Positions 2,195-27,610 of a stretch of DNA of 64,000 nt are shown piece by piece. The notes beneath the pieces are model-generated. The model searched no databases, was not told where the DNA came from, and saw only the letters and a program-made list of their open reading frames with translations. The DNA comes from Candidatus Nanosyncoccaceae bacterium. Its GTDB lineage: Bacteria; Patescibacteriota; Saccharimonadia; Saccharimonadales; Saccharimonadaceae. Location: positions 16,207 to 80,206 of the forward strand of contig JBJFFO010000010.1 in NCBI GenBank assembly GCA_051891815.1. Direction: 5' to 3'. A program made the position numbers and the translations under genes. The first letter of the stretch is position 1. Each line of letters begins with the position of its first letter.

Positions 2195-4378
2195 CTATAG
2201 TTTCATTGCAATTTGTTGTAGGGCCTTATTCTTTGTTCTCAGATAGTAGTTCTTTACTTTATCTGAATACTCAGCAGGGAGGTTAACGTCTCTTGCAAGT
2301 TCATCATAATATGATATGAAGTATGTTTGCTCTTGGTGTTCGATTTCAGCGCCTACTTGCGGATATTTATCTTTGAGAACTTCAGCAATATGTGTACAGT
2401 TGAATAGCTGGTAGAGATATTGTTTCAAATAAGATCCTTTAATTTCACCGATACTAGTTAATTTTCCTCTCGCTCTCGTGTCTGAATAATTCTCAAAATT
2501 AGTTTTCCTAAGCGGTCTGGTCTTTAATGCGTCTTGGTGAAGTACATTCCATAAATTAGAAACACAACGCTTCACTTGAGCTTCGTTGAGGTTATTATTT
2601 GGATTTTGTATATAAGATAGAATATTTTTTACATTAGAACTATCCATTAACGCATAGGTAGCAACCTCTACGCCAAAATCGTCCGTTATCGTATCGAGCG
2701 CATCCATATCAACACTAGCAATCCTCTTGTTGAAGAAAATATCTGGCTTAATGAGCCCTGATTTATCGAAGAATTCAGACAGTTGCGGATATTGCTTGAT
2801 GATGCTTGGATCTCCTTTTATACTCTTGCCGAGCTGTTCGATGTCGTATTGTATATACGGCATTTCTTGACCGTTTTCATCAACCTTGAGAGTAAAAGCG
2901 CGCCTCGTCCTCACTTCTTGTTCGTTTTCCATACACTTAACCCAATGGTCAGATGCACGTATTTTGCTGGCCACATCTTTTTTGTCCCAATAGTATTGCC
3001 TCTCGTGTTCGTTTATGAATTTTCGGCATTGTCTCCATGCTTCTTCATCAGCTTGAATTTCTATTTCGTCGCTATCATGATTCGCTCGGTAGTAATCAGT
3101 TTTAACTTCATTTCCATTCTTATCAAGCACTTTGTTTAAGTTTTTGTCAACCAATGGGAAACACTGATTTTTATTTTTTCTTAAAACCTGATTTAGTATA
3201 TGAACCATAGCGCTGCTATTGTCTTTGCCGTCTGCCACCATAAATTTTTGATAGTCGTGGGTGAGTTCATGAAAGGAGACCACCATTAAGGAATACAGGT
3301 CAGAAATAGTTTCACGTCTAGATTTACTAAGTCCTTCCTCTGACGATAACGACATACGGTTAATTTTATTCTGCTCCAATACACAATATTCTGCGCACGA
3401 GACTCCTGTGTTGACTGGAGTTAATTTTTGTTTCTCGTTATCATACCTAGAATTATTAGCTATAATAATGCGCCTGTCTTTCAATCTGTCATCCAGCGTG
3501 TCCTTATAGCCAAAATAATTTGCAAGAGCGCCACCTATTTGTGTAGAAGGTTTTAAATCTCGTCGTTCTCTTGCTTCGTTAAACATATAGCACGCAAACT
3601 TCTTTGCTAAGCCACTGCCGAAATCTCTCCCTGAATACAGATAATCGCCAACCATGTTCAGTTCGCCCTGAGATACTAATGCTCTATTTTCCAAGCGGCT
3701 CTCAATCGTCCTTAAGTAACTCTTATACATGGCCTCGCTCTCGCCGAGGTTTCTAACTATTCTATCTACTTGATCTGCCGGCTGAAGTTGCGAAATTACC
3801 AATCTTCGATACCTCGGATTCTTCAATACTGGGTTCGTAGATAATTCGGGATAATACTTTTTGCCATTGATTATTTGCACTTTTTGGCGTGCAGTGTCTA
3901 CGATGTACGAAGCATAATTTCTAAATTGTTCTGAGTTAACAAAATCTCTTGCACTATCTCCCGATAGCTGACCAATAATATAATGGTCTAGCATATCTTT
4001 ACTAGAAAGAACATCGGCCCTAGATTTAGAATTGGGTTGATATTGCTCAAGATAGTTTTCTTGCGCAGTTTTTAAGAGATTAGGATTAGAAAGTATTCTT
4101 TCATACTTCGGTAATCGTATTGAATATCCTTCTAATTTAGTAGGAGAAATTATATCACCATAGGAATCATAGTCGCCATCCGAACCACCCCATACATTTT
4201 CATCCTCAAAATCTGAGTTACCTATTTCGGGTTTATTCGCTGATATTTGCCTTGCTTCCTCTACTCGGCGAGCAGCAGCATCGGGATCAAATGGTGGGGC
4301 ATCTTCTAACGGATGTTTTTCTTGGCTCGCTTGTGGATTCTCGCTTATTGAGCCAACTTTTTCTGCGTCGCTAATCAT
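2195..4378 (-). CDS. large HExxH (zincin-like) protein of unknown function, paralogue of 28124-30169
   Basis: 727 aa. SFHELTHDYQ (aa 369-378), then ANHDSDEIEIQADEEAWRQ about 60 aa downstream. Acidic, disordered N-terminus; no signal peptide or TM segment seen. Its start overlaps the stop of the upstream ARH gene (ATGATTAG). Confidence 0.8.
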   Translation of the reverse strand: MISDAEKVGSISENPQASQEKHPLEDAPPFDPDAAARRVEEARQISANKPEIGNSDFEDENVWGGSDGDYDSYGDIISPTKLEGYSIRLPKYERILSNPNLLKTAQENYLEQYQPNSKSRADVLSSKDMLDHYIIGQLSGDSARDFVNSEQFRNYASYIVDTARQKVQIINGKKYYPELSTNPVLKNPRYRRLVISQLQPADQVDRIVRNLGESEAMYKSYLRTIESRLENRALVSQGELNMVGDYLYSGRDFGSGLAKKFACYMFNEARERRDLKPSTQIGGALANYFGYKDTLDDRLKDRRIIIANNSRYDNEKQKLTPVNTGVSCAEYCVLEQNKINRMSLSSEEGLSKSRRETISDLYSLMVVSFHELTHDYQKFMVADGKDNSSAMVHILNQVLRKNKNQCFPLVDKNLNKVLDKNGNEVKTDYYRANHDSDEIEIQADEEAWRQCRKFINEHERQYYWDKKDVASKIRASDHWVKCMENEQEVRTRRAFTLKVDENGQEMPYIQYDIEQLGKSIKGDPSIIKQYPQLSEFFDKSGLIKPDIFFNKRIASVDMDALDTITDDFGVEVATYALMDSSNVKNILSYIQNPNNNLNEAQVKRCVSNLWNVLHQDALKTRPLRKTNFENYSDTRARGKLTSIGEIKGSYLKQYLYQLFNCTHIAEVLKDKYPQVGAEIEHQEQTYFISYYDELARDVNLPAEYSDKVKNYYLRTKNKALQQIAMKL

Positions 4379-5513
4379 TGTTATCTACCTGTCCTTTAGC
4401 TGTCTTTTTCTTGTTAGTAATATTCTCAAAGAATTCATTATCCTCGAATCTGGTTCTAAGAATTGGACATTTTGGCATTTTAAGCAGATCATCGGCTATT
4501 TCGACTAACTCGTCAGATAGATAAACTTCTTTTCGCCATTCCTCAGGTATCGCATTGTAGCCATAATAAGCACCTGCGAGTTGGCCATAGATTGCGCCAT
4601 TAGTATCGGTGTCTCCACCTAATCTAATTACTGCCATAATACCATCTTTGAAATTATTGAAGTTCATCAAACCCCAGAGAGCAATAGCGAAGGCATCAAC
4701 GATGTATCCACCGAGATTGCATAGTTTCTCTCCGTCTTTTTCTAGAGTTCTATTTATTAGTTTTTCGCAGTTATTGAGATAGAAGTGGTCATATTCTTCG
4801 TTCATAATCCAACGTCCACAATACGAAGCAATATTGTTTTTAGAAAGCCCATGCAGGGCGCAGTAAAGCATTGTTGCAAATAGTGCCGTCGTTGCCTCGG
4901 CGGCAATAGAATTATGTGTTTCGCGACATGATAGAACTGCCATATCGATCGTAGGCGTGATATCTTTTAGATCGATAAATTCTCCGCCATCATTTTTGGG
5001 GTCAATTATAAGATTTCCTTTTTTAAAACCATCTTGGAGGGTTGGGTATTTTTTATTTAAGAAAGTATTAGCGATAATAATCGGTGCGAGACGCATGATC
5101 GCGCCATTACCGGCAGATTCTGTTTTGGGATAATCTTTTGGTACTACTGGGTGAGCGATAAATTCGTCAATAGCACGAGATGTTTGCATTCCCACATCAT
5201 GGGCCGGCTTATCGTCATATGTTCGATAGCCTTCTTCACTCCAGGCCCGGAATCTGCGCATGATGTCATACGAATCATATCCCTCGTTGACTAATAAACT
5301 ATCTGCCATACAGAGCGCCATTTCCGTATCGTCAGTCCAAACGCCTTCTGGCACACGGTAATTCTTATGGAAATGTTCAATTTTATCACCCATTTCTTTA
5401 ATATAAACATCTGACGGATCAGGTAAGAATTCTACGGGCGCACCAAGAGCATCGCCAACCGCGAGACCGACGAGCATGCCGCGAGCTCGATCTTGGTAAT
5501 CACTATTAACCAT
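4371..5513 (-). CDS. ADP-ribosylglycohydrolase (ARH/DraG family)
   Basis: 380 aa. RARGMLVGLAVGDALGAPVEF, WTDDTEMALCMADSL and a C-terminal GGDTDTNGAIYGQLAGAYYG are the ARH-family metal-binding motifs. Confidence 0.88.
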   Translation of the reverse strand: MVNSDYQDRARGMLVGLAVGDALGAPVEFLPDPSDVYIKEMGDKIEHFHKNYRVPEGVWTDDTEMALCMADSLLVNEGYDSYDIMRRFRAWSEEGYRTYDDKPAHDVGMQTSRAIDEFIAHPVVPKDYPKTESAGNGAIMRLAPIIIANTFLNKKYPTLQDGFKKGNLIIDPKNDGGEFIDLKDITPTIDMAVLSCRETHNSIAAEATTALFATMLYCALHGLSKNNIASYCGRWIMNEEYDHFYLNNCEKLINRTLEKDGEKLCNLGGYIVDAFAIALWGLMNFNNFKDGIMAVIRLGGDTDTNGAIYGQLAGAYYGYNAIPEEWRKEVYLSDELVEIADDLLKMPKCPILRTRFEDNEFFENITNKKKTAKGQVDNND

Positions 5514-5845: not shown

Positions 5846-6046
5846 TTGGTTGACGCGAAACGCTATGACGATATGGATGTTCTGCGATGGGAACTTGAGA
5901 GACTTCCGAAAACCCTAACTTATAAGATTTTGGAAATTCAACGTTGTCCGAAGTGCAAGAAAGAATTCACAGACTATCCGGCGCTTTCGCGAGGGGATAA
6001 CGAAACAGAAATCTGTCCGGAGTGTGGTGTTAGGGGAAGCGATTGA
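5846..6046 (+). CDS. small zinc-ribbon protein or gene fragment
   Basis: CPKCKKEF...CPECG gives two CxxC pairs. TTG start in the ORF track. The same frame stays open upstream to nt 5705 with no ATG, so it may be the 3' remnant of a longer gene. Confidence 0.3.
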   Translation: MVDAKRYDDMDVLRWELERLPKTLTYKILEIQRCPKCKKEFTDYPALSRGDNETEICPECGVRGSD

Positions 6047-6076: not shown

Positions 6077-8563
6077 TTACTGATTGCCTTGTATTTCTTG
6101 TTGTGCGCGTTGGATATATGTTTCTATGTCATCTAGAGAGAAATCTTTGCCAAACAAATTTGGATTTTGGGCGTACAACCTGCGTAATAGGTCGCTTGCC
6201 GTCTTGAAAGAATAATCGTTTCCGGCTAGCGATCTACTTTTATTGGTAGAAGCACCATAAGGGCCATCCATGAGCTGCATATTTACATCGAGGTTATAGC
6301 CACGCTGAATCATATCGTTGACTACTCCGCCACCGCCCACTGCGATCATATAGCCGTCTCTATCTTTTACATATTCAAGCTGAGTGTCTGGTAAATCCAT
6401 CCAGTTTTCAGCTTTCCTGCCATCATGTTCCAATATAGTCGCATGAGTAATTGTATTCGGTTCGACCCCACCACTTTCTTCGTGCGTTGCTTCCATTGTG
6501 AGCGTTCCGAGTAGCACTATCGAATTATCAGGATTCGACTCGTTGCGACGATGAACTGCCTCATGCATTGTCTTCTCAACGCCAAAATTAGTTCCGCCGG
6601 TTACTATAAAAGCAGTCTCCGGATTTAATGTATCAGCGAGCACTTGCATAGTTAACGCTATTTTTTGCTGATCTTTCGGAGTAATATTTGGCCAGTTGCT
6701 TTTGGAGGCTCCCGTAATCATTACCGGAGTTTTTCCAGCTGTTGCTTTTTCGACCGCTTCAGCATCAGTAACTATTCCCACTCTTTCGAGCCTCTCGTCC
6801 AATTGTCTTGCTGCTTCGGCTTTTGCTGCAGCGTATCGATCCGACACGGCTTTATTGTATCTTGGTTGGCCATCCTCAGTAGAATACTTTACGCTATCAT
6901 ACATGAAATCAACGCTTTCTGGTCGTGGATGACTACTCTCTCGGCGAGATTCTCTTTCTAGTATTTTTGCCTCAGTTTGTCGCATTTTTTCGAAATCTTC
7001 TGGCTCTAATCCTGCCGCAGTTGCAAGAAGGGCTTCTTGTTCGCCGATTGTTGAATAAAGTCCGCCGCCATCTGTGCCTAAGACTACATCGACACCGGCA
7101 TCAAGATATTTCTTTATGGGGATTTCAGAAATACTATTGATATTATTCAAGGCCAAATTAGAGCTAATATTAAACTCCACTATTGCACCCATTTCTTTGG
7201 CTAGTTGGATCGTTTCCTCATCTACGCCATATAATCCATGTCCAATTCTTACTCTGGGCATTTCGTATTCACGACCGTCGGCTGCTTCGCGTGCTTCATG
7301 TTGCTCGTAGATAATACGCAGGGTATCTTTTACATTATTCTTAAACATCGGGTTTTCCCCGGCATGAACTCGAATTGTAAAGTCTGGGTCTTCGCCCATT
7401 GCGTAATTGGCAAGCATTTGGAGCTCGTCCTTGAATGTTTTCGTAGAGTTAGTTTCATGACCCATAAAATCAACGCCGACGATGTATGGGCTTCTGGCGA
7501 TGCTAGTAATTCTATCAGTATCGTCCATATTCCATTCTTTGTCGGAGTGTCGCCATAAGCCCGCCACGAAGCGAAGCTTTACTCCGGTTTGAGCTTCGAT
7601 TTCTGGAACATGTTCATTTATCATTTCCATATACTCACGATCACCGATAAACGATGAGTACGATAGTTCCGCGTATTCTACGCCCGTATCACGATACGTC
7701 TCTGCCAGGGAATGGAGTAGATCGGGGAACAATTCTTTATTTTTTGTGAATGGGCCACGCAAAGCGTATATTTCTTCCATCTTATTGAAAGTTTCTTGTG
7801 TGACCGGAGAAATCATAAGGCCGCTTTTTAGTGTGTCTAAATCCTCATCGCTTATGGATTTCAGTTCTATATTGCCTTTATCATCGACTTCGTATTGACT
7901 AGTATCAACTCCGACTTGGGCTAGAAAATGTGCGGGGTATGAAATGTCGTGTTTCTTACCTACATCGATTAGTGAATCCGGAGTAATTGCTCCGGCAAAA
8001 TGTGTATGCAAATCAGTTTTTGGTTTAAAATCGGTCAGCTTTTCCCTAGAGAAAGGTACGCCATTTTCTTTTCCTTGAGCAAGCGATCTTAACTCAAAAG
8101 CTGTCAATTTATTCACGCTTTGAATTTCGCCAGTAGAACGACTTACGTCGATAAAGATAGTATCGCGAATAGAATATCGCCAAATATCTTCGTTCTCGGT
8201 AGGAGCTATTGACGATATGCCTCTCAGATTCTCGACGATTTTACGGCTTAAATGTTCGTCTTTACTGGAACATTCTAGATCGAAATCCACTCCGTCATCA
8301 GACTCTTCGAAAACGACTTTCAATAAGTTCCCGTAGTCTAGAAACGATTCGGAAAGGCGTTCTCTGTCTTTTTCGTATTTACTTTCGTCTATATCTGAAC
8401 GTCTCTCGGAGTCGGTACTAGGTTTAAATGGCACTTCTGCTGCCAGATCGTCCCAAGTGGTTTGTTTACTATCTTTCCCACCCTCAATAACTTCCCAACC
8501 GGTTTCCTGAGGCTTCAAGGCGTTGTTACCTGATATGGCACCACCGAGATTAAAGTTTTTCAT
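6077..8563 (-). CDS. adenosine-deaminase-fold domain fused to a C-terminal SLOG/LOG-like Rossmannoid domain
   Basis: 828 aa. Deaminase ligand set in canonical order: DLHTHF (aa 184-189), GVDFMGHE, RVHAGE (398-403), RIGHG (439-443), NISSN, LGTDGGG (495-501). C-terminal VMITGAS, FIVTGGTNFGVEKTMHEA and MIAVGGGGVVNDMIQ match the LOG/SLOG glycine-rich pattern. The first ~180 aa are unassigned. Confidence 0.8.
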   Translation of the reverse strand: MKNFNLGGAISGNNALKPQETGWEVIEGGKDSKQTTWDDLAAEVPFKPSTDSERRSDIDESKYEKDRERLSESFLDYGNLLKVVFEESDDGVDFDLECSSKDEHLSRKIVENLRGISSIAPTENEDIWRYSIRDTIFIDVSRSTGEIQSVNKLTAFELRSLAQGKENGVPFSREKLTDFKPKTDLHTHFAGAITPDSLIDVGKKHDISYPAHFLAQVGVDTSQYEVDDKGNIELKSISDEDLDTLKSGLMISPVTQETFNKMEEIYALRGPFTKNKELFPDLLHSLAETYRDTGVEYAELSYSSFIGDREYMEMINEHVPEIEAQTGVKLRFVAGLWRHSDKEWNMDDTDRITSIARSPYIVGVDFMGHETNSTKTFKDELQMLANYAMGEDPDFTIRVHAGENPMFKNNVKDTLRIIYEQHEAREAADGREYEMPRVRIGHGLYGVDEETIQLAKEMGAIVEFNISSNLALNNINSISEIPIKKYLDAGVDVVLGTDGGGLYSTIGEQEALLATAAGLEPEDFEKMRQTEAKILERESRRESSHPRPESVDFMYDSVKYSTEDGQPRYNKAVSDRYAAAKAEAARQLDERLERVGIVTDAEAVEKATAGKTPVMITGASKSNWPNITPKDQQKIALTMQVLADTLNPETAFIVTGGTNFGVEKTMHEAVHRRNESNPDNSIVLLGTLTMEATHEESGGVEPNTITHATILEHDGRKAENWMDLPDTQLEYVKDRDGYMIAVGGGGVVNDMIQRGYNLDVNMQLMDGPYGASTNKSRSLAGNDYSFKTASDLLRRLYAQNPNLFGKDFSLDDIETYIQRAQQEIQGNQ

Positions 8564-8585
8564 GCCACTATGATACCTTTCCTAG

Positions 8586-9269
8586 CTATTCCGCTGATCC
8601 GCCCTTAAAGTCTCCTGCTTGCTCGGCGATATTATCCCAAGTCGTTGGTTCTTCGGTCTTTGGCGTTTCGCCAGTCGCCGCTTCGCCGGAACGAGTGTAA
8701 GTATCATGAAAATCTCTTGGGTTAATTGCATACATATCATCTGGGTTCGTAATATTAATAAAACTACCCTTTGGCATATTCATCTCATCTCCCCATTGCG
8801 AAATTGTCAAAGCTTCTTTCGTTTCAACGAACTTCTGTGGGCCACCGACAGGTCTGAAAATGTCCGGATGGTCTGGATCCACTTCATACTTCTTGCGGAA
8901 GGTTTTGTCGTCAATAATCCATTGATTCGTATGGCCATTCTTATCAACTATTGGATTACCGTCGGCATCAGTTTTGGTTGCGATCCAACCAGTTTCGCCG
9001 GTTTCTTCGTCGGCTGTCACGGTGGCTACCTTTTCCTGAATTGGATTTCCGTTCTCATCCTCGCTCCAAGAAATAACTTCTTGTCCAGCCTCGCCTTTTA
9101 CGGCACCAATGCGAGCGTGTTTTGCCGCTTCGAACACTTCCAAACTACCGTCGGCTAGGCCGGCCTCAACGTATTCTTTTGTATCGACTTTGCGATACTC
9201 CATATTTTCCCAACCAGTATTTCCGGCGGTTTCACTATTACCACTAGGAGCTGTTTCCTTTGAACTCAT
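8586..9269 (-). CDS. hypothetical beta-rich protein, first gene of the ADA::SLOG operon
   Basis: 227 aa. GGAGG RBS 7 nt upstream. 22-nt gap to the downstream 828-aa gene. Paralogous to the 202-aa ORF at 9710-10318 (GWIATKT.../EWIATNP..., FRKKYE/FHKRYE, NPDD). Confidence 0.8.
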   Translation of the reverse strand: MSSKETAPSGNSETAGNTGWENMEYRKVDTKEYVEAGLADGSLEVFEAAKHARIGAVKGEAGQEVISWSEDENGNPIQEKVATVTADEETGETGWIATKTDADGNPIVDKNGHTNQWIIDDKTFRKKYEVDPDHPDIFRPVGGPQKFVETKEALTISQWGDEMNMPKGSFINITNPDDMYAINPRDFHDTYTRSGEAATGETPKTEEPTTWDNIAEQAGDFKGGSAE

Positions 9270-9308
9270 AAGTATTCCTCCAACTATTAAAATTACTATT
9301 TACATTAT

Positions 9309-9326
9309 GCCACAAAATTATGTGGC
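9309..9326. promoter_or_regulatory. candidate operator (inverted repeat GCCACA-N6-TGTGGC) in the divergent XRE / operon control region
   Basis: gccacaaaattatgtggc, with perfect 6-bp arms. On the minus strand it overlaps a TGgCATAAT extended -10-like element upstream of 8586-9269. Confidence 0.4.
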
Positions 9327-9381
9327 TGTGAGCCTATATATGAAAACTTCTTTTCAACGGATAATAGAAGTAAGGAATATT

Positions 9382-9630
9382 ATGATGGAGGATAGGGCCT
9401 ATGTCCATGACGATGAGTATTGCTACGAGGTGATTCGTAGGAATATGCGTAGGTTTCGAAATCAACGCGACCTCACTCAGCAACAATTGGCCGACCTGAC
9501 CGATATGTCTAGGGAATATATTTGCGATATTGAGAATACTAGCCGAAATAAACACGTTTCAATCGCGGTTCTCGGCCGAATAGCTGAAGTCTTAGACAAA
9601 CCGATCGGCGATTTCTTTATTGAAGATTGA
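9382..9630 (+). CDS. XRE-family helix-turn-helix transcriptional regulator
   Basis: 82 aa from the ATG at 9382 (AAGGAA RBS at 9372-9377). LTQQQLADLTDMSREYICDIENTSRN is a typical Cro/C1 HTH. The longer ORF from 9109 runs antisense through the neighbouring gene, so I did not use it. Confidence 0.85.
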   Translation: MMEDRAYVHDDEYCYEVIRRNMRRFRNQRDLTQQQLADLTDMSREYICDIENTSRNKHVSIAVLGRIAEVLDKPIGDFFIED

Positions 9631-9709
9631 TTAATTTTTCTTGGAAGGAAAAAGGCAGCTCCGAAAAGCTGCCTAGTAGGTTTTCCTGAGACTACCGCTC
9701 AGATCTTGA

Positions 9710-10318
9710 TTACTCGTTCCAACCTTTTCCCAGAACTTCATCTGCAGGCCCGTAAGCCGCAAAGTCGTTCTCGCTCAGAATGTAGCGATCGCCCTCGGCG
9801 AGGTCATCAGGATTGTCCTTATTGTAGGGAGCGCAGAAGTAGCACTTCGCATCTCCGTTCTGCGGACCACCCCAAGGTGCCTCGATCTCGACTGCGTCGC
9901 CGGTATCATTCTGGATGATTCTTGCCATACCCTTGGCGCGATACACGCCGGGTTCGTCCGTAGGCTCGTAGCGCTTGTGGAATGTCGCATCCGGAATGAC
10001 GTAGTTGTTGTCGCGGTCGCTTTCCCAAGCCTTGGGATTGGTAGCGATCCACTCGCCAACTTCGACAGGACGCGTGTCCTCGAGCTCAGCGCTGCGAATG
10101 CAGCCTTTGCCCTCAACGGGAATCTCGCGCATCACATAGGTGTCGATCACATACTGGCCTTTCTTGTCGTCGAAGCGAATGTCCTTGTCGGCATATTCGC
10201 CAGCCTTGAGTCCGTCCTCGGTGATCTGCATAGCCTTGATGACGCCTTTCTTGGCGTAGATGGCCGCTGCTGCGAACTTGTTGGTGTACTCCTCGGTGTT
10301 CAGATTGATCTTCTTCAT
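9710..10318 (-). CDS. hypothetical beta-rich protein, GC-rich paralogue of 8586-9269
   Basis: 202 aa. Shares EWIATNP, FHKRYEP and NPDD...F blocks with the 227-aa protein. 34/60 G+C counted at 9901-9960, inside an otherwise AT-rich island. Confidence 0.75.
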   Translation of the reverse strand: MKKINLNTEEYTNKFAAAAIYAKKGVIKAMQITEDGLKAGEYADKDIRFDDKKGQYVIDTYVMREIPVEGKGCIRSAELEDTRPVEVGEWIATNPKAWESDRDNNYVIPDATFHKRYEPTDEPGVYRAKGMARIIQNDTGDAVEIEAPWGGPQNGDAKCYFCAPYNKDNPDDLAEGDRYILSENDFAAYGPADEVLGKGWNE

Positions 10319-10437: not shown

Positions 10438-10466
10438 ATTATAGCACACTTTAGCGAAATTGTCAA
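10438..10466 (-). promoter_or_regulatory. sigma70-type promoter (TTGACA-17-TATAAT) for 9710-10318
   Basis: The minus strand reads ttgacaatttcgctaaagtgtgctataat. This gives a leader of about 110 nt. Confidence 0.6.
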
Positions 10467-10824: not shown

Positions 10825-11703
10825 TTAAGAAACTTTGGCCTCCGACCTAGGACGTACAGTTCGGACGTGTGCTAGACGCCTACCACTATCAAACGAGAAT
10901 TTATCTTTGCCGTCGGTTCGCCTCCAAACCCAGTCTGTGATATTTACGTAGTGGTCATTGTCGGTGTAGTGCGAAGATAATGCAAAGGATACTTCCATCT
11001 CCTTACCGTCCTCGTCTTTTACTGTCTTCATGCTGTCTTCGTAATTGCAGACGTATTCGTTGCTTTCTTTTGCTATCGCCTCTATATGCTCAGCAAAGTC
11101 TCTCCATTTCGCATAGGTGTCAGAGTATCTATCGCACATTTTCTGGACGCTAGCGTCGGTCTTTTTGTAGTCGGAGTAAAGCTTAAATATGCTCGACGGA
11201 GCGTTCACTTGTTCTTGGCGCTTTAAGAAATCTGATGCTCTGAATGATGATTTCTGGGATAACTCTTTGAGTCTTGTCGTCTTGATCTTGATTTCATTTG
11301 TAATAATGTCGCTATCTTGCCATAGCTTTACGCCGAAGCTCTTGCGCAAATCTTCAGGAATTATACCCCATATCCATGCGGTCATCGCAAGTTCCTTGGC
11401 CTCGTCGCTCAGAGTTTCAAAATCTAGTAGTCTTGGGTTGCGCCGGACGCGGCCCATGACCTGCTCATCTAATTGTTTGCTCTTACTATCACGCATCTGG
11501 TACAACATACAAGCGCGTGGAATATCCCATCCCTCGGTGATGACCATTTTGAAGATTATGATATCTATCGTAGATAGGTTTTCTTTAGCATAGTCTTTCC
11601 ATTTCGAAACTGGAAGCTTCTTGGCCATGCGAGCATTCAAGTTACGATGACTTATACCCACGTCGTAGATGAAGATCTTCACCAAATTCATCGCTTGAAG
11701 CAT
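10825..11703 (-). pseudogene. truncated SF2 helicase / type III restriction Res-like protein (C-terminal RecA lobe only)
   Basis: 292 aa. VITEGWDIPRACMLYQM and QVMGRVRRNP correspond to helicase motifs V and VI. No Walker A or DExH part is present upstream, because the Fic gene starts 128 nt away. Confidence 0.6.
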
Positions 11704-11722
11704 ACGGTGATTCGCGCCTCTT

Positions 11723-11794
11723 AACTTTAAATAATGAGAAATCGCTACTTTAAATAATTACTCCTGTTATAGCGACATCTCAACTTTAAATAAT
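11723..11794 (+). repeat. three direct copies of ACTTTAAATAAT upstream of the Fic gene
   Basis: Copies at 11724-11735, 11747-11758 and 11783-11794. The first and third extend to aactttaaataat. Confidence 0.7.
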
Positions 11795-11830
11795 CTACCT
11801 ATTATGGTAAAATAATACTAGGAGAATATT

Positions 11831-12961
11831 ATGATTAATACACCTACCCCTAAATTTGATTCTGGCCTCACGAATATCATTCTTGAGCTAGAACACCTTA
11901 AGAATCGTCCGCTCAAAAATACCACGAGCGAGAGTGTCTTTTTGCAGCTCAAAAGCTTACTCCATGCAGTGGAAGCGGTCGCTTCTGCGCGCATCGAGGG
12001 GAATCATACAACTATCGCTTCCTACATCGAGAAGCGTGATGACGACAGCCATAAGAACGATGAGCAGATCATCGAAATCTCCAACTTGATCGACGGCTTG
12101 GATTTTATTGATAGATACGTCATGGAAGAGCTTATCTCGGCTGATTTCATCAAAGAGCTTCATCGTGTTGTCGTAGGTGGTCTAACCCATGAGGGCGACA
12201 AGCGTGCAGGTGCGTGGCGCGATGAGCCTCGTTATATCGCCAATGCCAAGCATCAACCACCTGAACCATATGATGTTCCGGATCTCATGCGTGAGCTTAT
12301 CGACTATATCAATAGCGACGAGGGCGAGCAGTATGACTTGCTCAAAATCGCTATCGCCAATCATCGCTTCGTTTGGATCCACCCATTCGGTAATGGAAAT
12401 GGCCGTACCGACAGATTGATGACTTATGCGCTTCTTTGCAAGAAAGGCTATATTGCTCCGAATAAAATGCGCCTCTTTAATCCAACAGCTATTTTTGCAG
12501 GTGATCGTAATAAGTATTACGATATGCTAGCTCTTGCCGATGACTATAAAGACGAGCATATCCTAGAATGGTGCGAGTATTTCTTGTCTGGTGTTCGCGA
12601 CGAGATTAAGAAATCCGAATCTCTTGCCGATGCTGAATTCGTCAATAAGAAGATCCTGCTTCCGTCTGTCGGTCGTATGGAGAAAGCCGGTGTTGTTTCC
12701 AAACTAGAGGGCAATATTCTTGGCCGTGCTGTTCGTCTTGGTGTTATCAAGGCTAGCGACATCAAAGATCTTTGGGGGCGCGAAGTTACTTCCGTTGCTA
12801 TCGCTCAGCAGATCAAGAAACTTCGTGATCGTAACCTTATTAAACCCACTAAAGAGGGTGGCCGTGAATACGAGATCAGCTTTGAAAATAGTGAGCTAAC
12901 TCGCGTTACTCTCGAGCAAATGGATCTTGCCGGTCTTCTGCCGATCCGAGTGGACCGCTAA
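11831..12961 (+). CDS. Fic/DOC-family protein (putative AMPylase) with C-terminal wHTH-like region
   Basis: 376 aa. HPFGNGNGRTDRL matches HxFx(D/E)GNGRxxR, with Asn at the D/E position. The N-terminal ARIEGNHTT block is typical of Fic_N-type proteins. Confidence 0.88.
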   Translation: MINTPTPKFDSGLTNIILELEHLKNRPLKNTTSESVFLQLKSLLHAVEAVASARIEGNHTTIASYIEKRDDDSHKNDEQIIEISNLIDGLDFIDRYVMEELISADFIKELHRVVVGGLTHEGDKRAGAWRDEPRYIANAKHQPPEPYDVPDLMRELIDYINSDEGEQYDLLKIAIANHRFVWIHPFGNGNGRTDRLMTYALLCKKGYIAPNKMRLFNPTAIFAGDRNKYYDMLALADDYKDEHILEWCEYFLSGVRDEIKKSESLADAEFVNKKILLPSVGRMEKAGVVSKLEGNILGRAVRLGVIKASDIKDLWGREVTSVAIAQQIKKLRDRNLIKPTKEGGREYEISFENSELTRVTLEQMDLAGLLPIRVDR

Positions 12962-22787: not shown

Positions 22788-23177
22788 ATGAAGAAGATTG
22801 AAGTAGTTGCAGCAGTAATTAGAAAAAATGACAAAATCTTATCAACTGAGCGTGGTTATGGTGAGCTCGAAGGTTTCTGGGAATTTCCAGGCGGAAAAAT
22901 TGAACCAGGCGAGAATAAAGAGCAGGCCCTAAAGCGCGAAATCATGGAAGAGATGAATGTTGAAATCGAGGTTGAGGATTATATTACGACAGTGGAATAT
23001 GATTATCCAACATTTCATCTTATTATGCATAGTTTTATTTGTGAGCTTGATGGAGATTTTGAATTACTTGAACATCATGCGGCAAAATGGCTTACTCGTA
23101 ATGAGTTGGATGACGTGAAGTGGTGTCCGGCTGACGTTGAGATTGTTGAGAAGATTAAAGAAAAGCCACTTATCTAA
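22788..23177 (+). CDS. NUDIX hydrolase (MutT-like)
   Basis: 129 aa. Nudix box GGKIEPGENKEQALKREIMEEMNV. Confidence 0.88.
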   Translation: MKKIEVVAAVIRKNDKILSTERGYGELEGFWEFPGGKIEPGENKEQALKREIMEEMNVEIEVEDYITTVEYDYPTFHLIMHSFICELDGDFELLEHHAAKWLTRNELDDVKWCPADVEIVEKIKEKPLI

Positions 23178-26046
23178 TTAGATATTCATAAATATCTTCC
23201 CGCACCTCGTGATCTAGCTTTAGGCGCACGTTGACGACGGGAAGCTTTTTGCTTCCGCTTGTCATATACTGTTGTTGCAAATTTTCTGCACGTGCTCTGC
23301 CGAGATAGTAAAAGTCGAAGCCTTCAGCGTTAGCTTTTTTAACAAATAACTCAATTCTGAGATTGCTCTCGTCTGCATGCTTTAGTGCAATGGCCTCTGA
23401 CGAATCTAATCTCACACCATTACGTGTTAACCAGTTAAAATATCCGCGATTGATAAATGCATCTTCGTATTTCGTACTATCTGAAATGCCTTCATCTTTA
23501 TTAAGAGTTACAAAGATAGGACAGGTTCCATGTTTTATTCTGTACCCGTACATAGTAGAGCTATCGTCATGAGGCCATTTTAGCAACCTGCACGCATCGC
23601 GCCTAGAATATTTCTTAAATAATTTAAGATCGTTTTCTGGGTCTCCGCCAATATACTCATCTTCATACCGCAAGAGCGCGTATTCAATAAGGTCATTCAA
23701 AAACAATTTAAGATTTTCTGACAAGCTGTCAGTGAAATCTTGATTTCTGATAATATTACGATCTTCGATATGGCAGAAGCTGAGCGATTTGTATCGATTT
23801 TGGCTTGCGCTAGTTAAAAAGTCGCCCGACATTACATGAATTGCAGAAATAATGTCAGAATCATTAAAGACTCTATACTCGCTGAGCGCTTGCTTAACGT
23901 AGTCAAAATCAATAGAACTCTCTTCTAGTAGCTTTTGTAAAATTACGAGTTCGGTCGGTCTCTTGCCATCTCCAAATTCAATCGAAGCATATTGTAAAAA
24001 TGCCGACTCTTCTTCTGTAAGAGAAGTAAGGTCTTCCTCGACCTTCGCTAGAAAGCCATAAAGAGAGCCGTATGATTTAACGATAATATTCGGGTCAATT
24101 GAGCCGAATCTATAAAAATCTACCAAAGTTGGAGTTTTGCCAATTTTTTCTTTTAATTGAATGTACTCGTCGCGAAGTAATCTAAGCGTCGAGAAGTTTG
24201 CGCGGTTAATAGAATTAAAGATGCGCTGTTCGGCGATACGGTCAAAAGAAATAGTTGAACATCCAGGAATAGTCGGACTCCCCGCGACGATTGTTTTACG
24301 TAGAGTGTCTTTATTCATTGTTTTATCGCCGGAAAGTGCAATTGGAATCATGAAGTTATTTGTGTAGTTTCCAATAAAATCTAGAACGACAACAAAATCC
24401 TTATTTTTTACCTTCCTGAGCCCGCGACCAAGTTGTTGTACGAAGATAATAGCCGATTGCGTTGGCCTAAGCATGATAATCTGGTTGACTTTTGGGATAT
24501 CTACGCCTTCATTAAAAATATCCACAGAGAATATGTAATCTAATGCATTCTCGTCATTTACGTCCGACTCGAGCCTGCGCGCAGCGGCTATACGTTCTTC
24601 TTGGCTACTAAAGCCCGCAAGCGCAACCGTTCTGTAACCTAGAGCGTTAAATTTCTTTGACAATTCTATTGCCTCGTCTATTCTGCTAACAAAGATGAGT
24701 CCTTTAACTCTATCGCCGGCATAGCCATAATACTTCGCATAATTCAAAATATTCCTAACGCGTTCATCTGATGTTAGATATCTGAAGTTTGTCGCCTCGT
24801 CTATCTCTACTCCGTCAATTGCAAGTTCTGCAATACCGAAGTAGTGGAAAGGGCATAATAAATCCGCACCTAAAGCATCTTTCAGTCGAATTTCATATGC
24901 GATATTATGATCAAACAGTTCATAGGTACTTGTGCCATCCGAACGTTCAGGCGTCGCCGTCATGCCTAATAGGAATTTTGGTCTGAAATAATCAAAAATT
25001 ATACTATAACTTGGTGCGCCAGCTCTATGCGCTTCGTCGACAATAATGTAATCAAAATATTCAGATGGGATATTTTTATAACAGTCCTCGCGTGACAAGG
25101 TTTGAATGGTTGCAAAGATAAAATCTGCATTTAAATCTTTTTGTCCACCAGATAAAAATCCGTATGTTCTCGAATTTCCGAATATGCGCTTGAAACTATT
25201 CATTGCACTTCGCGCAATTTGCTCACGATGAATAATAAAAAGCATTTTCTTTGCGTCAAATGCGCGAACGTCGAAAGCTGATAAATATGTCTTACCGGTT
25301 CCGGTCGCAGAAATTAGCAGTGCTTTATTGATGCCATCAATGCGAAGCTTCGCTAGCCTGTCTAGTGCTTCGACTTGCATTTTATTTGGTGCTAGAAGTT
25401 CGCTCTGGGATGAGAATTCTTCGGTTTGCTTTTCGACACGAGCGCGGTTAGTTTTTGCCTTTTTATATCTGACCTCATATTTATCTATCCATTCATTCGT
25501 GAGTTCGCTGGAATTTTGCCAGTTTTTGCGAAACTCGGATAGTATAGAATCGGTGACTTCACCATCGCGCATCGATGAGAATTTGAGATTCCATTCCGTA
25601 TTCGTAGAAAGTGCACTCGCGGTCAAATTTGAACTACCGACGATCATATTATAGATGTCATTATCTTTAAAAATATAACACTTAGTATGAAAATCGCCTT
25701 TGTCGTAAACTTTAACTTCAACATTATCTAATTCTTGAAGCTTACGCAGAGCGGCGGGCTCACTAAAATTAAGGTAATCAGTCGTTAAGATTTTTCCTCG
25801 TACGCCGCGTTCTTTCAGCTCGAGCAGAGTTTTTAGTAGCATTATTAAGCCGCTCATCGTAATAAAAGCGACAGAGAAATAAAACTCATCGCAATTTTCT
25901 AGTGACTTTATAAGATAAGAAATTACTTTTTCGCTATTTTCGGGGTCATTGTACAGTAATCTAGCGTGATATTCTTCGGGCGATAAATAAGATTTATCAA
26001 TAAAACTAGTCTTTAGGGCCTTCTCTAGAAAATCGGAGTTATCCAT
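23170..26046 (-). CDS. PLD(HKD)-nuclease / SF2 helicase / DUF3427-like C-terminal domain fusion (restriction-like)
   Basis: 958 aa. N-terminal FHTKCYIFKDNDIYNMIVGSSNLT (HxK...GSxN). Helicase motifs ISATGTGKTYLSA, VDEAHR and QQLGRGLR. About 330 aa of C-terminal extension. The 3' end overlaps the Nudix gene by 8 nt, convergently. Confidence 0.85.
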   Translation of the reverse strand: MDNSDFLEKALKTSFIDKSYLSPEEYHARLLYNDPENSEKVISYLIKSLENCDEFYFSVAFITMSGLIMLLKTLLELKERGVRGKILTTDYLNFSEPAALRKLQELDNVEVKVYDKGDFHTKCYIFKDNDIYNMIVGSSNLTASALSTNTEWNLKFSSMRDGEVTDSILSEFRKNWQNSSELTNEWIDKYEVRYKKAKTNRARVEKQTEEFSSQSELLAPNKMQVEALDRLAKLRIDGINKALLISATGTGKTYLSAFDVRAFDAKKMLFIIHREQIARSAMNSFKRIFGNSRTYGFLSGGQKDLNADFIFATIQTLSREDCYKNIPSEYFDYIIVDEAHRAGAPSYSIIFDYFRPKFLLGMTATPERSDGTSTYELFDHNIAYEIRLKDALGADLLCPFHYFGIAELAIDGVEIDEATNFRYLTSDERVRNILNYAKYYGYAGDRVKGLIFVSRIDEAIELSKKFNALGYRTVALAGFSSQEERIAAARRLESDVNDENALDYIFSVDIFNEGVDIPKVNQIIMLRPTQSAIIFVQQLGRGLRKVKNKDFVVVLDFIGNYTNNFMIPIALSGDKTMNKDTLRKTIVAGSPTIPGCSTISFDRIAEQRIFNSINRANFSTLRLLRDEYIQLKEKIGKTPTLVDFYRFGSIDPNIIVKSYGSLYGFLAKVEEDLTSLTEEESAFLQYASIEFGDGKRPTELVILQKLLEESSIDFDYVKQALSEYRVFNDSDIISAIHVMSGDFLTSASQNRYKSLSFCHIEDRNIIRNQDFTDSLSENLKLFLNDLIEYALLRYEDEYIGGDPENDLKLFKKYSRRDACRLLKWPHDDSSTMYGYRIKHGTCPIFVTLNKDEGISDSTKYEDAFINRGYFNWLTRNGVRLDSSEAIALKHADESNLRIELFVKKANAEGFDFYYLGRARAENLQQQYMTSGSKKLPVVNVRLKLDHEVREDIYEYLIR

Positions 26047-27535: not shown

Positions 27536-27610
27536 TGGGGATTCGCCAAGCGGTAAGGCAGTGGGTTCTGGTCCCACCATTCGGGGGTTCGAATCCCTCA
27601 TCCCCAGCCA
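27536..27610 (+). tRNA. tRNA-Gln: tRNA-Gln (anticodon CUG), CCA encoded
   Basis: Hand-folded: acceptor tggggat/atcccca (U1-A72), D arm gcc-aagcggtaa-ggc, anticodon arm gtggg-ttCTGgt-cccac, T arm ggggg-ttcgaat-ccctc, then g and cca. Confidence 0.9.

Follow-up and report, generated by a model that had tools for sequence, protein, structure and literature searches.

CARF, SAVED, and ThsA-SLOG effectors share a pattern in which one unchanging sensor-like domain is combined with different toxin-type enzymes. The ThsA effectors of Thoeris carry SIR2, transmembrane (TM), or Macro domains together with SLOG and are activated by cADPR isomers made by ThsB. In Cad1, binding of cA4 or cA6 by the CARF domain switches on the conversion of ATP to ITP and growth arrest (PMC11645235), and RADAR combines the AAA+ ATPase RdrA with the ATP/dATP deaminase RdrB (PMC9994260). 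The Kongming system comprises the adenosine deaminase KomA, the HAM1-like protein KomB, and the SIR2 protein KomC (bioRxiv 10.1101/2024.12.20.629578, PMC13454610). Here we describe a locus in a 64,000-nucleotide stretch of DNA from a Candidatus Nanosyncoccaceae bacterium (assembly GCA_051891815.1, contig JBJFFO010000010.1), hereafter the window. Its minus strand encodes an 828-aa fusion of an adenosine deaminase (ADA) to a SLOG domain, which we call ADA::SLOG, together with a 227-aa partner that resembles the PGDYG family. The data support well that this is a real, conserved, and uncharacterized system. Our tentative reading is a conflict module with two components, horizontally mobile and of the abortive-infection or toxin type, built around a regulated adenine-nucleotide deaminase; we give this reading somewhat less than an even chance. 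A preliminary description of the window, made from its letters before any database search, knew of no characterized example of such a fusion. Full-text literature searches likewise returned no description of one; they did not cover the founding SLOG paper, and an earlier in silico mention is therefore possible. Coordinates refer to the 64-kb window (Table 1) unless a locus is named; L-numbers denote fetched genomic loci, and P-numbers denote metagenomic representatives.

The central region of ADA::SLOG matches the Pfam family A_deaminase (PF00962) at 85.7 bits (cutoff 27, E = 4e-24), and NCBIfam ADA models match it as well. The deaminase motifs are DLHTHF (aa 184–189), GVDFMGHE (363–370), RVHAGE (398–403), RIGHG (439–443), NISSN (465–469), and LGTDGGG (495–501). 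In an alignment of 112 homologues, H188, H400, E403, H442, and D498 never vary, and H186 is present in 111. Because these catalytic and metal-binding residues are invariant or nearly so, the deaminase must be under selection. The full catalytic set claimed in the preliminary description is borne out by these matches and, judged by its sequence, the central region is a bona fide adenosine-deaminase-family barrel with that set intact. One position departs from the classical enzymes. The canonical (S/T)DD motif reads TDG at aa 497–500 (nt ∼7064–7075), with Gly replacing the second Asp in all 112 homologues. The Asp that contacts N7 of the purine in classical ADA is therefore missing from the family, which may point to another mode of substrate binding. 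With a profile built from 55 diverse family members, the E value is 6e-19 for adenosine deaminases in the PDB and 1e-9 to 1e-6 for Cad1-type chains. In PADLOC, the 828-aa enzyme is best matched by the Cad1 model CARF_ADA (5e-13), over profile positions 230–556, which correspond to its ADA part.

The C-terminal domain had been called LOG/SLOG from its motifs (VMITGAS, aa 614–620; FIVTGGTNFGVEKTMHEA, 652–669; MIAVGGGGVVNDMIQ, 739–753). Profiles and structure prediction uphold that call and place the domain, at the level of predicted fold, in the LSDAT/TRPM-MHR1/2 clade. Pfam matches to LSDAT_prok or LSDAT_euk (“SLOG in TRPM”) are found in 17–18 of 20 family members, all sub-threshold and the best at 2e-5. 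The window domain scores 17.5 bits against the gathering cutoff of 25.4 (LSDAT, PF18171/PF18139), and two more distant members exceed that cutoff (P0271, 32.7 bits; P0347, 27.1 bits). A family profile also matches the N-terminal domain of TRPM2 in the PDB (E = 0.0045). The AlphaFold2 (AF2) model of the domain has a pLDDT of 93.8 and a pTM of 0.91, and its top 50 Foldseek matches in the PDB are all N-terminal MHR1/2 regions of TRPM8, TRPM2, TRPM4, TRPM5, and TRPM3 (E values down to 4e-9, probability 1.0, TMq ∼0.5). The parallel to ThsA drawn in the preliminary description stands insofar as both proteins have a SLOG domain; by Foldseek and profiles, the clade is that of LSDAT and TRPM MHR1/2 and not the ThsA type.

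In TRPM2, MHR1/2 clamps ADP-ribose (ADPR) between Y295 and the β5-α3 loop (PMC6759353), and the invariant TGGTNFGVEK loop of the present family aligns with TGGSHTGVMK of TRPM2 (phmmer). The SLOG domain may act as a ligand gate of the deaminase. Where LOG enzymes have the catalytic Glu of PGGxGTxxE (D750 here), the family has Asp, Asn, or Gln. This position is not conserved, and binding is therefore favored over LOG-type hydrolysis; LOG-type catalysis by the SLOG domain was down-weighted on the same ground. A catalytic SLOG domain would make the protein a bifunctional enzyme, in which a LOG-like N-glycosidase or a hydrolase of ADPR derivatives acts in series with the deaminase, possibly to degrade or modify adenine-containing signaling nucleotides or to make a modified base. 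The SLOG superfamily does include the LOG phosphoribohydrolases, and SLOG domains have been predicted to process ADPR derivatives (PMC9503650). Numerous polar residues of the domain are invariant (K, S, T, E663, K, H, T, H, and Q753), and coupling with a Nuc_deoxyri_tr2 domain and NUDIX occurs occasionally in the family. However, the nearest clade, LSDAT/TRPM MHR1/2, binds ligands and is noncatalytic, the LOG-type Glu is not retained, and the lack of homologues in phage collections argues against a counterdefense role. We consider a bifunctional enzyme very unlikely.

A protein search with the 828-aa sequence returned 743 homologues, the full-length ones at 40–94% identity. The named homologues are all “hypothetical”, apart from one fragment labeled “adenosine deaminase”, and an exact-sequence look-up of the window protein found no identical record. 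A profile scan for the SLOG domain in one genome per species, covering 185,579 species, gave 27 loci with this SLOG subtype, all from metagenome-assembled genomes (MAGs) or uncultured isolates. In every one of the 27, the subtype is fused to ADA. The carriers fall into four or five phyla (Candidatus Saccharibacteria; Clostridia, Lachnospiraceae, and Bacilli; gut Alphaproteobacteria; and one Ignavibacteriales) and come largely from animal gut or rumen. An exhaustive hidden Markov model search of 1.84 billion representatives yielded 315 clusters, 212 of them at E ≤ 1e-10; ADA-SLOG was detectable in 104 of the 147 top metagenomic representatives, and Pfam A_deaminase matched 46 of 55 diverse ones. 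The nearest genomic relatives, L015 and L016, are Saccharibacteria of sheep and goat intestine (81–86% identity). Genes for NusG and α-glucan phosphorylase, both present in the window, also adjoin the homologue in the Saccharibacteria locus L008; the window is therefore almost certainly Saccharibacteria DNA. The genomic position of the module varies even among Saccharibacteria. The family is rare, patchy, and horizontally spread across phyla.

The 828- and 227-aa proteins and a 202-aa paralogue of the latter had no match in 50,697 phage records (tblastn), a plasmid collection gave matches only to ordinary add genes, and neither the SLOG nor the PGDYG-like profile found relatives in pattern scans of IMG/VR. 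The module is therefore host-encoded, and a phage-borne or counterdefense origin was rejected as unlikely.

The second component is the 227-aa protein, for which the preliminary description recognized no fold. Its AF2 model is β-rich (pLDDT 82.6) and has no significant match among PDB folds (best E 0.1). The similarity to PGDYG (PF14083) is weak, at 15.4 bits where the cutoff is 27 (E 0.025); adjacent homologues give faint PGDYG matches, and the fused domain in P0269 reaches 28.5 bits, above the same cutoff. In BFVD, the model matches only uncharacterized phage and giant-virus proteins (∼1e-7), with partial matches to phage entries named “PGDYG protein”. The earlier placement of this protein in a two-gene operon holds, and adjacency and fusion now add that it is a coupled partner. 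A homologue lies directly beside ADA::SLOG in about a third of the loci (L016, L017, where it is downstream, L018/L010, L030, L031, L038/L007, and L004–L006, with a weak case in L034). In L015, the PGDYG-like domain is fused N-terminally in a single 1076-aa open reading frame (ORF), with PGDYG-like sequence at aa 1–224 and ADA-SLOG at aa 255–1073. It is fused C-terminally in the 979-aa protein of L040 (aa 811–979) and in the metagenomic proteins P0246, P0260, and P0358. P0269, of 4275 aa, contains ADA (2752–2995), SLOG (3071–3259), PGDYG (3324–3413), and Fic (3812–3854) domains. Because the domain is fused at either end of the enzyme in independent lineages, at least five of them other than that of the window, there is strong evidence that the PGDYG-like protein is an evolutionarily coupled partner, physically or functionally.

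The local module of the window also contains the 202-aa paralogue, which lies 0.4 kb from the 227-aa gene, beyond an XRE-family gene. Its orthologues, at 89% identity, occupy the same position in L015 and L016. In the alphaproteobacterial loci L026–L030, a 233-aa protein (F4) with PGDYG-like sequence features is encoded directly upstream of ADA::SLOG; it may or may not be a remote homologue of the partner, the hhalign probability of 2.8% not being significant.

The enzyme attached to the SLOG domain can differ, as it does for the sensors of CARF, SAVED, and ThsA-SLOG effectors. P0271 carries a Zeta-toxin kinase fused to the same SLOG subtype, without ADA. In L016 (6527–8441), an extra 430-aa gene stands between the PGDYG-like gene and ADA::SLOG; it encodes the N-terminal tail shared with the module, followed by a Zeta_toxin/AAA_33 kinase (3e-9), and a 115-aa ORF comes after it. 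In L016, the ADA::SLOG gene itself is broken into two ORFs of 86 aa (the tail) and 738 aa, reflecting a pseudogene or an assembly error. Fic recurs as an immediate neighbor in L031 (6344–7486) and L040 (3784–4671) and in the same polypeptide as ADA-SLOG-PGDYG in P0269; the Fic protein of the window matches PDB 7xux at 2.4e-93. The constant parts are the LSDAT-type SLOG domain and the PGDYG-like protein, and the variable or co-occurring parts are ADA, the Zeta-type kinase, and Fic. All three are adenine-nucleotide-using enzymes and classic toxin or defense effectors.

The neighborhoods were surveyed with Pfam (the top 25 families by member count) and PADLOC, covering 138 proteins from 25 nonredundant loci. 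The commonest Pfam families are GNAT (5), resolvase (4), and Fic, NUDIX, and radical SAM (3 each); after these come housekeeping families represented once or twice. PADLOC matched SoFic three times (best 5e-110), Cas9 once, MADS components, NsnA, PD-T4-2, two viperin-like radical SAM proteins, and several restriction-modification (RM) methyltransferases. The Cas9 is of type II, lies directly downstream of ADA::SLOG in L026, and is the sole CRISPR neighbor. A serine recombinase flanks the module, upstream of ADA::SLOG, in five alphaproteobacterial loci, and a tyrosine-recombinase-like (integrase) gene lies near it in L016. Nuc_deoxyri_tr2 is encoded downstream in L039 (7660–8109, 8e-15) and fused C-terminally in the Ignavibacteriales locus L038 (10637–11443), where a Nudt16-like NUDIX gene adjoins ADA::SLOG (11608–12129). 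The human enzyme of the Nudt16 family is a (d)IDP/ITP hydrolase. In L010, Ham1, NUDIX, and NTPase_I-T lie within 8 kb. A defense role and ligand gating by the SLOG domain are suggested by the exchange of ADA for a Zeta-type kinase on the SLOG domain, the Fic fusion, and the defense neighbors (SoFic in three loci, Cas9, and RM- or MADS-like proteins).

From these data, we infer a scheme for the substrate, the ligand, the direction of regulation, and the phenotype. At rest, the SLOG domain, the PGDYG-like subunit, or the two together would keep the deaminase inactive. The trigger would be a nucleotide-type ligand at the SLOG domain, a signal sensed via the PGDYG-like subunit, or both. The activated deaminase would then convert ATP and/or dATP to ITP/dITP, as Cad1 and RADAR RdrB do, and the outcome would be growth arrest of the infected or competing cell. 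In the window genome, a divergent XRE repressor acting on a palindrome that overlaps the −10 element would provide extra control. A more general proposal, which strikes us as possible if rather doubtful, is that an LSDAT SLOG domain gates interchangeable ATP-consuming toxin domains (ADA and the Zeta-type kinase, with Fic alongside), with the PGDYG fold as the infection sensor and no dedicated signal synthase. Such proteins would form an unrecognized class of bacterial immune or conflict effectors with a sensor-effector logic of their own.

Several observations weigh against a conflict module. No signal-producing enzyme (TIR, CD-NTase/SMODS, cyclase, or Cas10) was found in the neighborhoods, either among the top 25 Pfam families or by PADLOC; the preliminary description had already remarked that no TIR or cyclase gene was visible nearby, and none is present in the listed Pfam families of the 138 neighbors. 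Many loci are embedded among housekeeping genes. Close PGDYG-like homologues (55–76% identity) also occur alone among housekeeping genes, and the partner fold must therefore have a function independent of the deaminase. By profile comparison, the ADA domain is nearer to ordinary adenosine deaminases (∼1e-19) than to Cad1 (∼1e-9), and specificity for nucleotides rather than nucleosides is therefore a guess.

The housekeeping neighbors and the kinship with ordinary ADAs would also suit an allosterically regulated adenosine or AMP deaminase with a role in salvaging purines or controlling the adenylate pool of host-dependent gut bacteria with reduced genomes; SLOG would then be an ATP, ADP, or ADPR regulatory domain. 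AMP deaminases are nucleotide-regulated. The carriers are gut and rumen MAGs, including Saccharibacteria and small-genome Alphaproteobacteria, and in some loci nucleotide-hygiene genes lie nearby, namely the NUDIX gene of L038, the Ham1/NUDIX/NTPase_I-T group of L010, and Nuc_deoxyri_tr2, adjacent or fused. However, a salvage enzyme is unlikely in our view, given that just 27 of the 185,579 species genomes have the family, that it is scattered across phyla at 40–60% identity, and that its place in the genome differs even between Saccharibacteria. Recombinases, XRE, SoFic, Cas9, and Zeta-toxin and Fic fusions are found in association with it, and most relatives of the same lifestyle lack it. 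A mobile conflict module is preferred over core metabolism because of the rare, patchy, cross-phylum distribution, the recombinase neighbors, and the several defense neighbors.

The N-terminal part of ADA::SLOG consists of a lineage-specific tail and a small domain. The domain (aa ∼71–180) is moderately conserved, with the motifs FLDY..LK and NKLTAFE.R.LAQ, and has no match in Pfam. The tail carries two W-acidic motifs, [TS]GW[ED] and T[TS]W[DE][DNE][LIM]A, whose sites within the window are all in the tails of the two proteins of the operon (8461–8503 and 8645/9218, minus strand). The 227-aa protein has TGWE in its N-terminal tail and TTWDNIA in its C-terminal tail, and ADA::SLOG has both motifs in its N-terminal tail; further sites lie in L015 (7469–10699) and L016 (5837–8441). 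Across the 701 kb of fetched loci, the motifs are nearly confined to PGDYG-like proteins, ADA::SLOG N-terminal tails, and the N-terminal tail of the L016 Zeta-type kinase, the exception being one weak [TS]GW[ED] match in an unrelated ORF of L027. The ADA::SLOG tail looks like a PGDYG-like protein minus its core, and the motifs may be docking peptides.

The occurrence of TGWE and TTWD(D/N)(L/I)A in common in the 227-aa protein and the tails of ADA::SLOG and the L016 kinase would also be consistent with a toxin-immunity or polymorphic-effector system. Here, ADA::SLOG, along with the Zeta-like kinase of L016, would be a toxin directed against competitors or the epibiont’s host, or a component resembling type II toxin-antitoxin systems; the PGDYG-like protein, or a Clostridial ∼150-aa protein, would be an adaptor, chaperone, or immunity protein, and the W-acidic tails would be docking or export tags. 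The giant proteins of 4–7 kaa that contain ADA-SLOG with PGDYG and Fic fit such a system, as does the ∼150-aa gene, which follows ADA::SLOG in seven loci and follows unrelated large ORFs as well. However, Pfam identifies no signal peptide or trafficking domain (LXG, RHS, PT-HINT, or MuF), the tail motifs are limited to the Saccharibacteria clade, PGDYG-like proteins are solitary in many genomes, and a single immunity family for unrelated toxins would be atypical. We judge this arrangement quite unlikely.

The ∼150-aa family has no Pfam match. In Clostridia or Ignavibacteriales loci, its genes directly follow or overlap ADA::SLOG, and in the same loci its members also stand immediately downstream of the unrelated ORFs (L018 10864–11304; L019 5883–6329 and 12271–12738; L021 6482–6922 and 10845–11303; and L023, L024, and L038). 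A basic-amphipathic C-terminal helix is conserved (e.g., FFSKIKSMFLKIFKK), and the pattern resembles that of an immunity protein, antitoxin, or chaperone. Between ADA::SLOG and the other large ORFs that accompany these Clostridial proteins, no common N-terminal domain, linker, or C-terminal tail was detected.

The operon is compact. Only 22 nt separate the 227-aa gene from the 828-aa gene, and the window scan found no terminator-like site between these two minus-strand genes. The divergent intergenic region spans 112 nt (9270–9381), taking the ATG at 9382 as the start of the XRE gene. The XRE protein matches HTH_3 (PF01381) at 39.3 bits (cutoff 23) and control-protein/CapH-like models in PADLOC. 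The inverted repeat GCCACA-N6-TGTGGC occurs once in the window (chance expectation 0.06 at ≤1 mismatch) and falls in the spacer and −10 region of the minus-strand promoter-like site. The ORF list and the motif and repeat scans recovered the ORFs, the gaps, nine motifs, the XRE gene, and the palindrome, all where the preliminary description had put them. Its term “XRE-controlled” suits only the window, where a divergent XRE gene and an operator-like palindrome over the promoter are present, and its closest relative, since an XRE gene is present in just 2 of 28 loci, the window and L016. L016 has ACCACA-N6-TGTGGC at the equivalent place, with one change in the left arm. XRE was rejected as part of the conserved system because only L016 among the relatives has one; it is a lineage-specific regulatory add-on and not a core component.

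Table 1. Coordinates of the features of the ADA::SLOG locus and its surroundings in the window
Feature	Position	Strand	Basis
Zn-ribbon-like ORF, 66 aa, CxxC...CxxC, convergent with ADA::SLOG; module membership uncertain	5846..6046	+	
ADA::SLOG gene, 828 aa, whole ORF including stop codon	6077..8563	−	ORF list, Pfam A_deaminase 4e-24
C-terminal SLOG domain, LSDAT/TRPM-MHR1/2 clade, aa ∼596–828	6080..6778	−	Profiles, AF2, Foldseek
Adenosine-deaminase (amidohydrolase barrel) domain, aa ∼181–560	6884..8023	−	Pfam and NCBIfam ADA matches
Small conserved N-domain of ADA::SLOG, aa ∼71–180	8024..8353	−	Family alignment
Lineage-specific N-terminal tail of ADA::SLOG, aa 1–70, motifs ETGWEV and TTWDDLA	8354..8563	−	Mostly gap columns, 111 homologues
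PGDYG-like β-rich partner, 227 aa, first gene of the operon	8586..9269	−	ORF list, weak PGDYG match 0.025
Promoter-like site of the 227-aa/828-aa operon, CTCACA-17-CATAAT, TG upstream of −10	9332..9304	−	Consensus scan only
Perfect inverted repeat GCCACA-N6-TGTGGC, candidate XRE operator	9309..9326	both	Repeat scan
XRE-family HTH regulator, 82 aa, divergent from the operon	9382..9630	+	HTH_3 6.6e-10
Bidirectional terminator-like hairpin between convergent XRE and 202-aa genes	9653..9674	both	Terminator scan
202-aa paralogue of the PGDYG-like protein	9710..10318	−	BLASTP 2e-7 to the 227-aa protein; PGDYG-like profile 2.9e-30
Consensus promoter of the 202-aa paralogue, 12/12 positions	10466..10438	−	Promoter scan
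SoFic-type Fic protein, recurrent neighbor/fusion partner, possibly functionally linked	11831..12961	+	Pfam Fic 9e-19

A homologue of the Zn-ribbon-like ORF is found at L016 10706–11128 (minus strand), likewise downstream of ADA::SLOG and convergent with it (cluster F9). At 2195–5513 (minus strand), a 380-aa ADP-ribosylglycohydrolase (Pfam 3e-62; Tri1/DraG-like in NCBIfam, below cutoff) and a 727-aa protein that contains an HELTH (HExxH) motif and matches no family are encoded with an 8-nt overlap. The pair sits just inside a tRNA-Thr gene (1947–2022), in the part of the window with the lowest GC content (38%), and looks like a separate toxin-immunity or effector pair; neither gene accompanies ADA::SLOG in other loci. 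The ADP-ribosylglycohydrolase was tried as a partner of the module, on the idea that LSDAT binds ADPR; it occurs in the window only, as 1 of the 138 neighbors, and was assigned to a separate module. Between the PGDYG-like paralogue and the Fic gene, a 292-aa ORF (10825–11703, minus strand) with weak similarity to helicase C-terminal domains and a phage DNA helicase (phrog_16) resembles the leftover 3′ end of a once larger gene for a restriction protein or helicase. Farther away, at 23170–26046 (minus strand), lies the gene of a 958-aa protein that resembles helicases or restriction subunits (EcoAI-type R subunit model, 1.6e-33, below cutoff); it adjoins a tRNA-Gln gene (27536–27610) and may mark another small defense islet.

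If the conflict-module reading is correct, ADA::SLOG would be the third independent sensor coupling to adenine-nucleotide deamination, after CARF-Cad1 and RdrA-RdrB, and would draw on a SLOG clade whose known functions have so far been limited to animal TRPM channels. The PGDYG-like fold, present in phages and giant viruses as well, would gain its first assigned function. An LSDAT-gated effector, if real, would represent a prokaryotic functional antecedent of the TRPM ligand-binding domain. Its carriers are uncultured lineages of gut and rumen, among them Saccharibacteria, and the conflict systems of these lineages have hardly been explored. The size of the family (>200 clusters at 50% identity) and its two-gene simplicity make it directly testable in a heterologous host.

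Comparison with the described systems shows which elements are shared. TRPM MHR1/2 and prokaryotic LSDAT domains are the best fold and profile matches of the SLOG domain and have the Gly-rich TGG..G loop in common with it; in contrast to those domains, the one described here sits on a soluble enzyme and not on a channel or TM (SLATT-type) module. The contexts of prokaryotic LSDAT domains have reportedly been described by Burroughs et al. in 2015. Like Thoeris ThsA, ADA::SLOG joins a presumed SLOG ligand sensor to an enzymatic effector, with alternative effectors for one type of sensor. It differs from ThsA in its LSDAT/TRPM clade and in having a deaminase instead of an NADase effector; the operon proteins have no ThsA or ThsB match in PADLOC, and no TIR appears among the listed Pfam families of the ∼25 neighborhoods. 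RADAR is likewise a two-protein system with an ADA-family effector and a second, presumed sensor or regulator. In contrast, the operon has no RdrA or RdrB match in PADLOC and no adjacent AAA+ gene, its partner is a small β-protein, and its deaminase carries a SLOG domain. Kongming also employs an ADA-family enzyme and inosine nucleotides in immunity, and its kinase-deaminase theme recalls the Zeta-like kinase of L016 and P0271. However, no adjacent SIR2 or dedicated KomB-like partner is found here, and we propose that the deaminase acts as effector and not as signal-maker; a Kongming-like role of ADA::SLOG as a signal generator is an alternative. Cad1 is the model for the proposed output, and in both proteins a Rossmannoid nucleotide-sensor domain is joined to an ADA-family barrel. 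The sensor of Cad1 is an N-terminal CARF domain, whereas that of ADA::SLOG is a C-terminal SLOG/LSDAT domain, with no CARF match in Pfam. Cas10 and type III CRISPR genes are absent from the 138 neighbor proteins, the PGDYG-like partner has no counterpart in Cad1, and the two ADA domains are distantly related. ADA::SLOG therefore stands outside Cad1, Thoeris, and RADAR and belongs to the ADA family and, by fold, to the SLOG/LSDAT clade.

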